A stretch of 64,000 nucleotides of DNA, from NCBI GenBank assembly GCA_963752155.1, contig CAVVXH010000010.1, positions 320,001 through 384,000 on the forward strand, in the 5' to 3' direction. Below are positions 48,401 through 51,400 of this stretch, in pieces; position 1 is the stretch's first letter; each line of letters opens with the position of its first letter. The position numbers are program-made. The stretch comes from an uncultured Parachlamydiaceae bacterium. Its GTDB lineage: Bacteria > Chlamydiota > Chlamydiia > Chlamydiales > Parachlamydiaceae.

Positions 48401-51400
48401 TGGCTTGTGGAGTGATTCTGGAATAGGTAAGGACAGCAAGGACAGCAAGGACAGCAAGGACAGCAAGGACGGCAAGGACGGCAAGGACAGCAAGGACAGC
48501 AAGGACAGCAAGGACAGCAAGGACGACAAGGACAGCAAGGACAGCAAGGACAACAAGGACAGCAAGGACAGCAAGGACAGCAAGGACAGCAAGGACAGCA
48601 AGGACAGCAAGGACAGCAAGGACAGCAAGGACAGCAAGGACAGCAAGGACAGCAAGGACAGCAAGGACAGCAAGGACAGCAAGGACAGCAAGGACGGCAA
48701 GGTAGCTATAATACGTTATCTTGGTAAGTTAGTCCTTGCTTTGTCGTCCTTGTTGTCCTTGTCGTCCTTGCTGTCCTTTCGTCCTTGTTGTCCCTTGCTT
48801 TAAGATTCCTCTTCAGAGTATTCTATTTCTGAAAAATCCTCTTCCTCAATAAATTCTTCATTCTCTTCATCCACCCCTTCAGGTTCTCTTTTTGCATGAG
48901 GATGTTCCCGTTTGGAAGGACCTTCCAGGCCTGGATCATGACATTCCCTTTCAGATCTTTGTTTGATTTTACCTTTCATTTGGATGATAAGAGGGACACC
49001 TAAAAATCCATACGCTTCTCTAAATTGATTGTAGAGATATTTCTTATAGCTTTCCGTCATTAACAGGGGGGAATTGACAAAGAGAACAAACTTTGGAGGC
49101 TGTATAGCCACTTGAGCCATATAGTAAATGCGCAGTCGTTTGCCTTTAAGCATCGGAGGATGATTGCGTTGCATCGCATCGGCAACAAATTTGTTCAGTT
49201 GATGTGTGGTGATTCTCACTTGAGAATCCGCATGCACCTTATTGACGATTTCAAAGATCTTGTCCACATTTCGACCTGTCAAGGCCGACATAAATAATTT
49301 CGGACAATGTTTAAGAAAATTGACTTCTTCCTCAATGCCTTTGAGGCAATGTTCCATTCGGAATCCTTTGACCAGATCCCATTTATTGAAAAGTAAAATA
49401 CATCCTTTTCCGGCATCTTCAATATCATTTGCGATTCTTTTTTCTTGTGCTGTCATTCCTTGCTGAGCATCGAGCATGAGTAGACAAACATCAGCACGTT
49501 CGATAGCTCTTTCAGTACGGATAGCAGCAAATTTATCTACCACTTCATGTTCTGCGTGTTTGCGTCGAATCCCGGCAGTGTCAATGAGCGTATAGTCTAC
49601 TCCTTCATGTGAAAAGGGGATATCGACACTATCTCTTGTTGTTCCTGGGAATGGACTAACGATACATCTTTCATCATCCAAAAGATAATTCACCAAAGAA
49701 GACTTCCCAACATTCGGTCTGCCAACAATCGATAGCTTGATCGTATGATCAATAGGACCTTCCAGGCCCGTAGGTTTATAGTCTTGAAATGCAGCCTCAA
49801 GTAATTCAGCAATATGCCATCCTTGCGTTGCAGAGACTGCAACTATGGGGTTAATGCCAAGTTGTTGGAATTGGTACATTAAGTGTTCTTTCGAGAGCTC
49901 ATCCACTTTATTAACAGCTAAAGTAATTGGTTTTTTCGTCTTCATCAGAATTCGAGCAATTTCGATGTCAAGGGTAGTCACCCCAGTTGTAGAATCGACA
50001 ACCATAATTAAAACATCAGCCTCTTCAATGGCGATTTCAGCTTGCCGTTTGATCTCTTCATTAAAAAGAGCTTTGGAATGGGCATTAATTCCCCCGGTAT
50101 CAATCACTTGAAAAGCGAGACCAAAGAGATCTGCTGAGGCATAAAGTCGATCGCGGGTAACCCCTTCGGCTTCATCGACAATAGCAATTTTTTTTTTACA
50201 AATGCGATTAAATAGGGCTGATTTACCCACATTAGGACGACCAACGATGGCTAATTTCGGTAATTTTGACATAAACAATGACTTTGATTAATGAGTAATT
50301 GAAGTTCAACACTTGCTAAATATTGATAAAACCACTATACTACATTTAGATGTTATTGTCTTTATCTTTTTTCAGCCCCCTGAATTTATAATTATGAATA
50401 GTAATAACCCAACGGATGAAATTACGCTTCTTCCTTTTACAAAGGAAGCCTCCGGTTACAATTGGGAAATGTTACGTAAAGATTTTCCTGCAGCTTTTGC
50501 TGTAGCGTTACTTACTCTCCCGCAAGTGATGGGATACTCTGTACTTGTTGGATTACCCTTATTTTGCGGACTCTTCGCTGCCATTTATTCTTCAGCAATA
50601 GCAGCTTTGTTTGGATCTTCAAGGCATATTGTTGTAGGTCCTAGCAATGCTATGGCAATCTTAGTGCAATCGGGAGCCGCACAAATTTTATTTACCTATT
50701 ATCGAGATCTTCAGGGGGTTGATAGGGAATTTGCTGCATTGCAAATAATTACCTTATTGAGTTTTTTAGTCGGTATTTTTCAAATATTAGTTGCTGTTTG
50801 TAAGTTGGGGAGGCTGACCCAATTTGTAAGTCATTCTGTGATTGTAGGGTATATGGCGGGGACTTCGATTGCCATCGTCATAAGTCAGCTTTTTGCTTTA
50901 TTCGGTATCAATCGTGTGCCAGGTGTCAGTTCGTTCATTGAAAGAGGAATTTATTTTATTACCCATCTGCATGAGATTTATTGGCCAACAGCTACTATTG
51001 GGGTTAGCAGCCTTTTGCTTATTATAGCACTTAAAAAGATTGATAAACGTATTCCAGCTTCTTTGATTGCATTTGCTTTAGCAGGTGGTGTCGTGCATTA
51101 TTTCGGATTAAACGACTATGATGTTATGTCCCTGGATGACTCGAGAAGGACTTTATTGGTTGGTGACATAGCAGCATCGTTTGAAGTCATCCCTATTTTA
51201 CAATGGCCTTTCTTTGATCTAACCATCTTCAATGCAGCCTTGCCGATCGCTTTTGCAGTAGCTATTGTAAGTGTGATGGAAAGCATTTCTGTAGCTAAAT
51301 CGATAGCTGCAAGTACAGGTCAACGTCTTTCTGTCAATCAAGATATCTTTGGAATAGGTTTAGGGAATCTTTTAGGTGCCTTTTTTGCAGGAATTCCTAT

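Follow-up and report, generated by a model that had tools for sequence, protein, structure and literature searches.

In the genome of an uncultured chlamydia, a long hairpin made of tandem 9-mers of the pattern AAGGACRRC is wedged between the stop codons of two converging genes. What kind of element is it, does it serve the genes whose ends it touches, and where does it come from? We followed it through the window (the whole stretch of 64,000 nucleotides analysed, contig C10:320001-384000, offset 320000), through the rest of the source genome, and into other genomes and metagenomes.

The element between the superoxide dismutase and der genes

As listed in Table 1, the element consists of (AAGGACAGC)x30, a 38-bp loop and about six inverted units, and it occupies the whole stop-to-stop gap between the Cu/Zn superoxide dismutase gene and der. 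The stop codon TAG of the former (48424-48426) lies 2 nt ahead of the 5' arm, and the stop codon of the latter (48800-48802) lies 6 nt beyond the 3' arm. The span of 48429..48786 given in the survey's finding had the correct start, while the true end is 48793. The dismutase has a complete C-terminus, and der is not truncated, as the alignment with its same-genus orthologue reaches residue 491 of 492. The last units of the 5' arm form the stem with the 3' arm, and the minimum free energy predicted for 48620-48805 was -117.2 kcal/mol, compared with -53.3 +/- 4.0 for shuffled sequences (z = -15.9).

Table 1. Positions of the features within the window (window coordinates)
Feature	Position	Strand	Description
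ACGATAARA element	24513..24868		(ACGATAARA)x11.4, 183-bp loop, about 7.8 inverted units
Short solo AAGGACRRC array	40831..40859		3.2 units, between two minus-strand genes
Cu/Zn superoxide dismutase gene (Sod_Cu)	47887..48426	+	Pfam Sod_Cu E = 1.1e-47, profile positions 2-133 of 133 on residues 49-177 of 179
Two spurious ORFs	within 48377..48803	- and +	107 aa on -, 132 aa on +; arrays read as LSL.../KDS... peptide repeats; no Pfam match
5' arm	48429..48702		30.4 tandem AAGGACRRC units, mostly AAGGACAGC; TRF period 9, 96% matches, score 506
Loop, 38 bp, type A	48703..48740		33/33 bases identical to the loop at C1:12687-12719; flanks unrelated
3' arm	48741..48793		About 6 inverted GYYGTCCTT units, imperfect; TRF period 9, 6.0 copies, 80% matches
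der/engA GTPase gene	48800..50278	-	Pfam MMR_HSR1 x2 and KH_dom-like

None of the six reading frames of the AAGGACRRC unit is interrupted by a stop codon. ORF calls inside such elements had already been suspected to be spurious, and the two at this element are indeed translations of the arrays. Likewise, the solo array lends the ORF at 39218-40876 a false N-terminal extension. AAGGACRRC arrays were absent from the orthologous der 3' regions of five genomes, which are too distant (80-85% Der identity within the genus) for an exact empty site. One DNA sequencing run (0.11 share of words), compared with the sequence beside the element, gave scraps only, including an identical 151-nt contig inside der.

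A dispersed family at the 3' ends of genes

Genome-wide, TRF (score of at least 30) detected 120 arrays and 44 adjacent inverted pairs, and an exact regular expression detected 73 arrays of at least three units (37 forward, 36 reverse) together with 187 four-unit matches. The arrays reported in the survey (95, with 195 four-unit matches) are thus real, whereas their number depends on the detector. The AAGGAC arm precedes the GTCCTT arm in 44/44 pairs, which extends the fixed order seen before in 38 of 38. Since reverse complementing leaves this order unchanged, it is a genuine constraint and no effect of strand choice. The pairs are 92-365 bp long (median 156) with 2-30 units per arm. Among about 440 units, seven of the nine positions are nearly invariant and the remaining two vary between A and G only. 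The stable fold claimed for the elements was reproduced, with a median folding energy of -75 over all 44 pairs versus -36 in shuffles. As only spurious ORFs occur within the 44 pairs, the element is short, non-coding and multi-copy, with terminal inverted repeats.

Among the genomes of the order that were searched, the family was found in the source genome alone. The four-unit pattern gave no match in 40 relatives, and the three-unit pattern gave none in 400 other genomes of the order, compared with 260 in the source genome; the unit pattern read backward was likewise without a match. When the four-unit pattern was searched over wider genome contigs with the own genome excluded, the matches listed were isolated loci, probably coding repeats, in genomes that are unrelated and for the most part rich in G+C.

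The elements have moved between loci, since the window loop recurs in 33/33 bases between unrelated flanks at another locus (Table 1). Altogether 21 of the 44 loops match elsewhere in the genome, nearly all of them within other family elements, and 23 are unique. The earlier observations that unlinked loci have loop types in common and that flanks are not conserved were both upheld: the shared loops are identical or nearly so with unrelated flanks, and no conserved flank was detected at the array boundaries. A fixed target motif was absent there as well, with no outside position above 49% for one base (119 boundaries). True flank pairs did not surpass mismatched pairs in direct-repeat score (one of 44 just at the 99th percentile), and target duplication was also absent from loop-sharing copies. 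No empty paralogous site was recovered by blastn with the 250-bp flanks of all 44 pairs. Strongly palindromic flanks, as expected from insertion into terminator loops, were found at one of the 44 pairs, C10:509173, where they are the two terminal repeats of another MITE family, with the copy placed exactly between them.

The two arms of a pair behave independently. Their lengths are uncorrelated (r = 0.007; F arm longer in 16 pairs, R arm in 17, equal in 11), the variant dinucleotides agree at 41/142 positions (chance expectation 0.25), and the arms are not mirror images, with a unit order that varies independently. Independent lengths and unit order are what slippage would produce, and the arms probably grow and shrink through replication slippage or unequal exchange.

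The closeness of the pairs to stop codons is far from random. Among the gene 3' ends beside a pair, 28/37 (27/36 with the crude ORF set described next) lie within 11 nt, which bears out the placement near stop codons noted in the survey. With a crude ORF set (at least 100 aa, greedy choice), 43 pairs fell into 15 divergent, 20 tandem and 8 convergent contexts, against 396/1596/398 for all gene pairs in the genome; the excess between divergent genes, given before as 13/38, thus recurs as 15/43, twice the genomic share. In tandem contexts the upstream stop codon is hugged in 15/20 cases, compared with 2.15 expected under uniform placement within the residual spacer, and 15 was reached in 0 of 1,000,000 simulations. 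In convergent contexts both sides are hugged in 6/8 cases, with a total spacer of 5 to 28 nt left. Tight spacers are common in the source genome, because 31% of the array-free convergent pairs also have no more than 30 nt between stops.

Nuclease genes enclosed by inverted arrays

A second 9-mer family of the same build, ACGATAARA, is present in the source genome; it numbers 86 arrays, the longest with 59 units. What lies in its loops is a gene for a small PD-(D/E)XK nuclease (Pfam PDDEXK_3, GxxExxY), intact in one case and decayed in about 18 others. The intact gene, at C10:276677-277099, matched PF13366 with E = 1.2e-39 and TIGR04256 with E = 1e-40, and its catalytic D/E/K residues are invariant. 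In the window, the loop of the ACGATAARA element (Table 1) corresponds to a minus-strand PDDEXK_3/GxxExxY gene with an internal deletion, and tblastn located remnants at C10:344642-344742. The earlier statement that no transposase is linked has to be revised in view of this sister family with its nuclease gene and remnants. The AAGGACRRC arms enclose no gene. At two loci, copies of both families lie interleaved with each other. The ACGATAARA family does not hug stop codons (1/26 within 11 nt).

The predicted fold of the protein is a minimal PD-(D/E)XK nuclease, closest in a fold search to Cas4, lambda exonuclease/RecE, MGME1 and Hjc, all of them superfamily-level matches only; the nuclease profile matched no PDB sequence. 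The PDDEXK_3/GxxExxY family is tabulated with the function 'Unknown' and 'multiple transfers' (PMC3424549). Within the literature searched, we found no mention of repeat arrays flanking it.

Similar arrangements were observed elsewhere. In five genomes of the order, PDDEXK_3 genes are bracketed by inverted 8-9-mers, for example ACACAGAGG x3, ATG...stop, CTCTGTGCC x3, and 8/18 loci with usable flanks in genomes of the order had an IR score of at least 14. Metagenome relatives were retrieved with two peptide patterns from one PDDEXK_3 clade, in a search based on a four-sequence alignment. The sample was the best 80 of at least 564 confirmed relatives (at least 598 pattern matches), and 69 loci were scored. 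Among these 69, drawn from the best 80, 54 had an IR score of at least 14, compared with 1/92 displaced controls; 60 had TRF arrays in at least one flank, periods of 8 (58 rows) and 9 (40 rows) being dominant; and the loci spanned 32-68% G+C. In the same best-80 sample, upstream arrays were purine-rich in 36/45 cases and downstream arrays pyrimidine-rich in 36/45. Some PDDEXK_3 cassettes have plain inverted repeats instead of arrays. Rfam 15 gave no match at 20 cassette loci, and for the AAGGACRRC element it gave only sub-threshold matches to generic hairpins. The class of nuclease cassettes appears to be widespread and undescribed.

The cassettes often hug stop codons too. In the sample of the best 80 of at least 564 relatives, 32/69 3' ends lay within 11 nt by the code used for the AAGGACRRC family, a figure uncontrolled by displaced windows, which may be too high where long frames in G+C-rich contigs are spurious. 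Among 10 hand-checked cassettes, a co-directional upstream stop codon lay 2-12 nt before the array in five, overlapped the array in two and was 28-293 nt away in three; the neighbours at the first four of these ten loci, verified by Pfam, are ordinary housekeeping genes. Stop-proximal placement is not restricted to this chlamydia, given these gene-bearing cassettes, and for the same reason hugging need not reflect a terminator role. Among the mismatches of the cassette arms, G.U pairs were not in excess on the coding strand (96 vs 110, p = 0.37) and transversions were many, which speaks against strong selective pressure to keep an RNA stem in cassettes that carry the gene.

Origin of the elements and comparison with known systems

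Taken together, we favour, at a probability of roughly 0.55, the reading that the AAGGACRRC elements are gene-less foldback derivatives of the array-armed PDDEXK_3 cassette class, with arms that change by slippage. Each element consists of tandem AAGGACRRC units on the 5' side, complementary units on the 3' side and a short variable loop between them; the family would be a non-autonomous offshoot of the wider class. In that class, a PD-(D/E)XK nuclease gene of about 125-140 aa (Pfam PDDEXK_3, NCBIfam GxxExxY) would lie inside inverted, purine-rich 8-9-bp arrays, with the purine-rich array immediately upstream of the ATG. The typical cassette would be wedged between host genes of the same direction, its outer edge often a few bases past the upstream stop codon. 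Stop hugging may then be a trait of the class, arising by insertion preference or by survival of those copies that are co-transcribed and perhaps translationally coupled.

The link between the AAGGACRRC family and the cassette class is one that we infer, because the AAGGACRRC loops hold no nuclease remnant. No PDDEXK_3 gene or remnant was found between AAGGACRRC arms anywhere in the genome; the loops gave a single 16-nt match to PDDEXK_3 genes by blastn-short; and no AAGG-phased 9-mer triple was found in the cassette loci examined. The 23 loops unique in the genome and the lack of stop hugging in the gene-carrying sister family also speak against the reading. The link accordingly draws on build, polarity, placement and unit sequence: the class trait of inverted 8-9-bp arrays with the purine-rich one first is present in 44/44 AAGGACRRC pairs, and the rotated unit CRRCAAGGA equals 7/9 positions of the cassette unit CGCAAAGGA. 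The interleaving of the AAGGACRRC and ACGATAARA families at two loci counts for the link as well.

A fuller version of this reading is less likely than not. It would make the elements the tip of a widespread class of selfish cassettes, each a PDDEXK_3/GxxExxY gene of about 125 aa within inverted, Shine-Dalgarno-like, purine-rich 8-9-bp arrays, lying co-directionally within about 10 nt of a host stop codon. Read-through transcription would supply the message, and the terminating ribosome would open the stem base and switch on translation. In the source genome the class would have shed its gene and become a 'foldback' with runaway arm expansion, and the arrays may be the recognition sites that the nuclease uses for moving.

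A rather unlikely alternative holds that the copies are 3' end hairpins selected by the host, kept for terminating or insulating transcription or for protecting mRNA 3' ends, as is said of REP sequences, with mobility supplying the raw material. The great stability of the hairpins, the hugging in tandem contexts (15/20 vs 2.15 expected) and the 5 to 28 nt of total spacer in the 6/8 convergent cases hugged on both sides speak for it. So does the finding that classical terminator-like sites are not enriched in the 20 kb around the element (9 vs 15.7 +/- 4.4 shuffled); moreover, a same-genus genome has a G+C-rich stem with a T-run about 20 nt past the der stop, at the element's place in the source genome. 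However, the 15/43 copies between divergent genes have no 3' end to serve, arms of 30 units go far beyond the need of any hairpin function, and array-free convergent pairs are often tightly spaced already (31%). Besides, gene-bearing metagenome cassettes hug stop codons as well, so placement may belong to the element class. A run of at least five T follows within about 10 nt past the 3' arm at only 7/88 ends; since the other 81/88 have no such run, the elements are unlikely to be classical intrinsic (Rho-independent) terminators. Host selection overlaps with our preferred reading, differs from it on the cause of placement, and would matter most at nearly abutting convergent genes. Under the preferred reading, a role as an mRNA 3' hairpin is possible: with a hairpin of such stability directly behind a stop codon, each copy is probably also a 3' hairpin on host transcripts, a putative side effect that might act as a barrier to 3'-exonucleases and as a read-through brake between convergent genes.

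Two further explanations are improbable to about the same high degree. One takes the copies for REP/REPIN-like elements that a Y1 transposase (RAYT or IS200/IS605-type) mobilises in trans as single-stranded hairpins without target duplication. The hairpin build without target duplication or conserved termini would suit it, and two Y1_Tnp matches (PF01797) exist at C10:596730 (52.5 bits) and C11:40824 (33.6 bits); yet 7.4 kb and 12.8 kb separate them from the closest family arrays, whereas RAYT genes are flanked by their own REPs. Nor is there a fixed tetranucleotide at the ends, arms with a variable number of tandem units are not a REP trait, and the sister family ties the same architecture to a different gene. 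The other would see in the 9-mers DNA-level arrays of iterated inverted sites for a nucleoid or regulatory protein or for the cassette class's own nuclease, with the hairpin incidental. It draws on the near invariance of 7/9 positions over about 440 units with A/G only at the other two, on arms that are not mirror images, and on cassette arm mismatches that are strand-symmetric and transversion-rich, as in repeated sites and unlike a conserved stem. It leaves the 44/44 polarity and the placement at stop codons unexplained, the 2 to 30 units per arm follow no pattern, and no candidate binding protein has appeared so far. Finally, an assembly or amplification artefact is hardly conceivable: long simple repeats are error-prone and such arrays occur at contig ends in related short-read assemblies, but more than 100 arrays lie at unique loci within long contigs, with constant polarity, diverse loops and intact flanking genes.

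If the cassette reading is true, PDDEXK_3/GxxExxY, a large family of unknown function, would gain a selfish-cassette lifestyle and a candidate substrate, namely its own arrays, and the elements would explain why contigs break in short-read assemblies of environmental chlamydiae. The elements would also offer a simple system for a hairpin at the ribosome's exit from a gene, in termination, mRNA decay and coupled translation. A testable generalisation is that PDDEXK_3/GxxExxY genes lie inside inverted 8-9-mer arrays behind host stop codons in genomes of 32 to 68% G+C.

Non-autonomous palindromic repeats are common in bacteria; in the literature searched, we found none described with variable tandem-array arms, no target duplication and placement flush at stop codons. 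Bacterial MITEs are small, non-coding, multi-copy, intergenic and bounded by inverted repeats (PMC3184786, PMC10969869, PMC5896051). The AAGGACRRC elements resemble MITEs so described in being short, non-coding, multi-copy, intergenic, inverted-repeat-bounded and probably mobilised in trans, and the sister ACGATAARA family resembles them in its internally deleted derivatives of a gene-bearing parent. Unlike the MITEs of those accounts, the AAGGACRRC elements have no target-site duplication, fixed termini or cognate IS transposase, and they have variable-number array arms and mixed loops. An autonomous parent with the same ends and a transposase was not found for AAGGACRRC; a gene-bearing parent exists only for the sister ACGATAARA family, and it codes for a PDDEXK_3 nuclease instead of any known transposase.

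The REP/REPIN/BIME repeats with RAYT are described as extragenic palindromes near gene ends with proposed effects on termination and mRNA stability (PMC3116915, PMC2817692, PMC3733652), the REP being a single palindrome of 20-40 bp with the conserved tetranucleotide head GTAG/CGTC (PMC3733652). Relative to these descriptions, the AAGGACRRC elements are likewise extragenic palindromes near gene ends without target duplication, but they differ in their 2-30-unit arms, the lack of a conserved head and Y1 genes 7-13 kb away. Membership in REP/REPIN-RAYT fails on the palindrome head (no position above 49%, 119 boundaries) and on a repeat-flanked Y1 gene. Hence, of the survey's picture of a REP/MITE-like mobile extragenic palindrome with tandem-repeat arms, the dispersed mobile palindrome stands and the REP/RAYT membership falls.

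Intervening sequences of 23S rRNA hold a small ORF in the loop of a long stem within rRNA helices and encode S23p (PMC4990558). PDDEXK_3 cassettes share with them a selfish small ORF of doubtful host use in the loop of a long inverted-repeat stem, while differing in their position between protein-coding genes, their PD-(D/E)XK nuclease and their arms of iterated 8-9-mers. As for PDDEXK_3/GxxExxY itself (PF13366, TIGR04256), the sister family's gene clearly belongs to it, whereas the AAGGACRRC elements carry no such gene.

The foldback (FB) elements of Drosophila have long inverted arms of short tandem repeats, and most copies are non-coding; they are eukaryotic and make 9-bp target duplications. 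The AAGGACRRC elements differ from them in having no target duplication, in their 9-bp units, bacterial host and abutment to stop codons, and in their link, as we see it, to a PD-(D/E)XK nuclease class. They agree with FB elements in their arms of short tandem repeats, whose length varies between copies as well as between the two arms, and in their small and variable centre.

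The window element and its family

The element occupies the entire gap between two convergent genes of this 3.13-Mb genome (22 contigs), a Cu/Zn superoxide dismutase gene and der. The TAG of the former lies 2 nt ahead of the left arm, and the der stop lies 6 nt beyond the end of the right arm. Because the Pfam domain of the superoxide dismutase stops at most 2 residues short of the protein end and Der aligns to its same-genus orthologue up to residue 491 of 492, the stops of both genes are native. The final 5'-arm units, the loop and the 3' arm together gave a folding energy of -117.2 kcal/mol (shuffles: -53.3 +/- 4.0), and an Rfam search returned only generic hairpin matches, all sub-threshold. 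The survey's finding had placed the element correctly in window coordinates but with an offset of 352000, which does not hold since the window is C10:320001-384000. It had rightly suspected the ORF calls inside such elements: the two in the window element are repeats translated as peptides. At the orthologous site 3' of der in the same-genus genome G002 (locus L121, ~1090-1300), several short G+C-rich palindromes were seen, e.g. GCGCCCCTACCGGGGCGC, as was a stem with a T-run ~20 nt past the der stop; the palindromic repeats of the sister species are thus different.

Coordinates of repeat features and associated genes (window positions unless a contig is named)
Feature	Position	Description
5' arm of the AAGGACRRC element	48429-48702	30.4 copies of AAGGACAGC, 96% matches (TRF)
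Loop	between 48702 and 48741	38 bp
3' arm	48741-48793	~6 inverted units, imperfect (TRF)
ACGATAARA pair	24513-24868	loop is an internally deleted copy of the PDDEXK_3/GxxExxY gene
Only intact nuclease copy	C10:276677-277099	141 aa, PDDEXK_3/GxxExxY; PF13366, E = 1.2e-39; TIGR04256, E = 1e-40
Solo AAGGACRRC array, 3 units	40831-40859	83 nt 3' of the stop of ORF 40942-42753 (-); lends ORF 39218-40876, which looks like DnaX, a false N-terminal extension
Period-9 / period-18 repeats	~13000-22500	many, of CAGGAGCNA / AGGTCCTAC type, inside long ORFs (e.g. 18324-19370, 19391-20491, 20945-22018, 22048-23046); resemble collagen-like Gly-X-Y repeats of coding sequence; no relation to the intergenic arrays
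72-bp (144-bp) tandem repeat	16005-16499	6.9 copies, 84-92% matches; partly overlaps ORF 16246-16908 (-)
Another MITE family	C10:452916-453342	~130 further blastn hits; ~45-bp terminal inverted repeats CCAAAATATGTGACTTCTAATTAAGTATGCACCCCTGATTATAAC
CACAGAGAW palindrome	C2:10265-10425	also at ~18 further loci, with none seen inside the window
Y1_Tnp (PF01797) matches	C10:596730-597053; C11:40824-41105	could be RAYT or IS200/IS605-type transposases

Nine is the commonest tandem-repeat period genome-wide (299 of 912 TRF rows). The exact regular expression gave 73 arrays of at least three units and 187 four-unit matches in the whole genome, and TRF gave 120 AAGGACRRC arrays with 44 adjacent inverted pairs, 92-365 bp long (median 156 bp). 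The AAGGAC arm comes first in all 44, as in the 38 of 38 pairs of the survey. As this order is unchanged by reverse complementing, the opposite arrangement would be a different object, and it has 0 occurrences; the pattern read backwards likewise had 0 matches in the genome. The stable folding claimed for the elements was also reproduced (median -75 kcal/mol vs -36 in shuffles). Scanning of 40 relatives for the four-unit pattern gave 0 matches, and the three-unit pattern matched 260 times here vs 0 across 400 further genomes of the order, which include many short-read assemblies where such repeats may drop out. In four genomes of the order (G001, G010, G037 and G143), PDDEXK_3 matches, like 9-mer arrays, are very often found right at the outermost bases of a contig. 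Short-read assembly of related genomes thus seems to be interrupted by the arrays, so that absence from such assemblies is weak evidence, as the survey had cautioned.

Outside the arrays no conserved flanks were found, in agreement with the survey, and both a target motif and a direct duplication were sought at the element boundaries, with neither found. Extended palindromes in the flanks were also absent, except at C10:509173, where the element sits precisely between both ends of another MITE family whose interior is replaced. The loops (16-99 bp) are diverse in sequence; 23 of the 44 are unique in the genome, and 21 are matched elsewhere, in either orientation and nearly always within another family element. 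The reported recurrence of loop types holds for the window loop, which is 33/33 identical to C1:12687-12719, although the two copies carry arms of 30 + 6 vs 12 + 3 core-bearing units and unrelated flanks. Entire elements were therefore copied to new sites. Lengths of the two arms are uncorrelated (r = 0.007), and the two variable positions of the unit, A or G only, agree between arms in 41/142 cases vs 0.25 by chance, i.e. without excess. Hence the data fit independent change of each arm by slippage or unequal exchange.

Placement beside stop codons

Placement was evaluated on a crude gene set (ORFs of at least 100 aa, greedy choice, 18 ORFs inside arrays removed). The 43 placeable pairs lie in 15 divergent, 20 tandem and 8 convergent contexts; all gene pairs of the genome comprise 396, 1596 and 398, respectively. 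The proximity to stop codons described by the survey was recovered, as the element lies within 11 nt of 27/36 adjacent gene 3' ends (28/37 in a second count). The first AAGGAC core is at most 15 nt from the stop at 28/35 boundaries, and in 3 cases the TAA stop overlaps the first unit. In tandem contexts the upstream stop is closely followed by the element in 15/20 cases, vs 2.15 expected under uniform placement in the residual spacer; in convergent contexts this applies to both sides in 6/8. For comparison, 31% of array-free convergent pairs have stops at most 30 nt apart. The elements are unlikely to be classical intrinsic terminators, since a T-run follows only 7/88 ends. Classical terminator-like sites showed no enrichment in the 20 kb around the window element.

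Sister families and nuclease cassettes

The ACGATAARA family of the same genome comprises 86 arrays of up to 59 units, mostly inverted pairs, and its loops are copies of a single gene. The intact copy retains the catalytic D, E and K residues and is predicted to fold as a minimal PD-(D/E)XK nuclease, its ATG overlapping the final array unit; some 18 further loops contain remnants of the gene with internal deletions. At 2 loci this family is interleaved with AAGGACRRC. Two genomes that belong to different families of the order contain the ACGATAARA pattern as well, frequently where a contig ends, and in a same-genus genome an 8-mer variant surrounds a decayed gene copy. A conserved 107-121-bp module was seen 11 times, in every case between an inverted and then a forward ACGATAARA array (C1:92645, C2:339623, C5:61465 and 8 other loci) and may be the outer part of the element. 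The third family, CACAGAGAW, is a MITE-like palindrome of fixed size (~150-160 bp) with three CTCTGTGNN units, a 15-bp loop, three CACAGAGNN units and conserved outer arms; a 9-bp direct repeat surrounds several of the 8 copies read. A CACAGAGAW-type unit also brackets PDDEXK_3 genes in a same-genus genome (locus L153) and in metagenomes.

PDDEXK_3 matches were found in five genomes of the order, several copies each, often as fragments and at contig ends. Where flanks exist, the gene is enclosed by inverted 8-9-mers, for example ACACAGAGG x3, 6 nt, ATG to stop, ~45 nt and CTCTGTGCC x3, or ACGCAGAG x4 plus its complement; an inverted-repeat score of at least 14 was reached at 8/18 usable loci. 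Three divergent PDDEXK_3 paralogues of the present genome carry short arrays too. Among the best 80 of at least 564 metagenome relatives, which come from one clade of the protein family, flanks were usable at 69 loci, and 54/69 reached this score, against 1/92 when pseudo-genes displaced within these loci were scored. In these best 80, TRF arrays occupy at least one flank at 60/69 loci and both at 31/69, mainly with period 8 (58 rows) or 9 (40 rows) and typically with the units CRCAGAGR, CACGGAGA or CGCAAAGR; upstream arrays are purine-rich in 36/45 and downstream arrays pyrimidine-rich in 36/45, over a G+C range of 32-68%. Rfam holds no family for the cassette flanks.

Stop distances were taken with one code for the metagenome cassettes, AAGGACRRC and ACGATAARA. 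For the best 80 cassettes, a long open frame ends within 300 nt at 69/108 boundaries, in raw counts without displaced control within 11 nt at 32 and within 30 nt at 44; for ACGATAARA, 1/26 3' ends lie within 11 nt. Of 10 cassettes read by hand, 5 have an upstream co-directional stop 2-12 nt ahead of the array, 2 a stop overlapping it and 3 one 28-293 nt away; the nuclease gene is co-directional with the upstream ORF in 10/10. Neighbours at 4 checked loci are ordinary, among them methionyl-tRNA synthetase, DeoC, SpoU methylase, phosphoglycerate mutase, aldehyde dehydrogenase and MgsA.

Origin and possible role of the elements

Taken together, the reading that fits the AAGGACRRC element best is that of a foldback derivative of the PDDEXK_3 cassette class which lacks the gene, with arms expanded in runaway fashion. 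We infer this link from the build and polarity, from the placement, from the similar units and from the physical association of the elements with the sister family that bears the gene; the unit rotated to CRRCAAGGA is identical to the cassette unit CGCAAAGGA at 7/9 positions. Nuclease remnants were looked for in the AAGGACRRC loops, and none were found. The placement beside stops was probably inherited with the cassette class, and may stem from an insertion preference or from survival of copies co-transcribed with the host gene.

The elements may plausibly act on host mRNAs as 3' hairpins. Mismatches between the arms of gene-bearing cassettes, counted on the coding strand, show no G.U excess (96 vs 110) and many transversions, which counts against a conserved RNA stem there; putative iterated protein-binding sites fit this pattern at least as well. 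A REP/RAYT-like origin of the family from a Y1 transposase is unlikely, because neither Y1 gene adjoins any of the three array families and the closest arrays are 7-13 kb away. As for the cassettes, the searchable literature yielded no description of flanking arrays, and PDDEXK_3 is listed there with function unknown and multiple transfers (PMC3424549).
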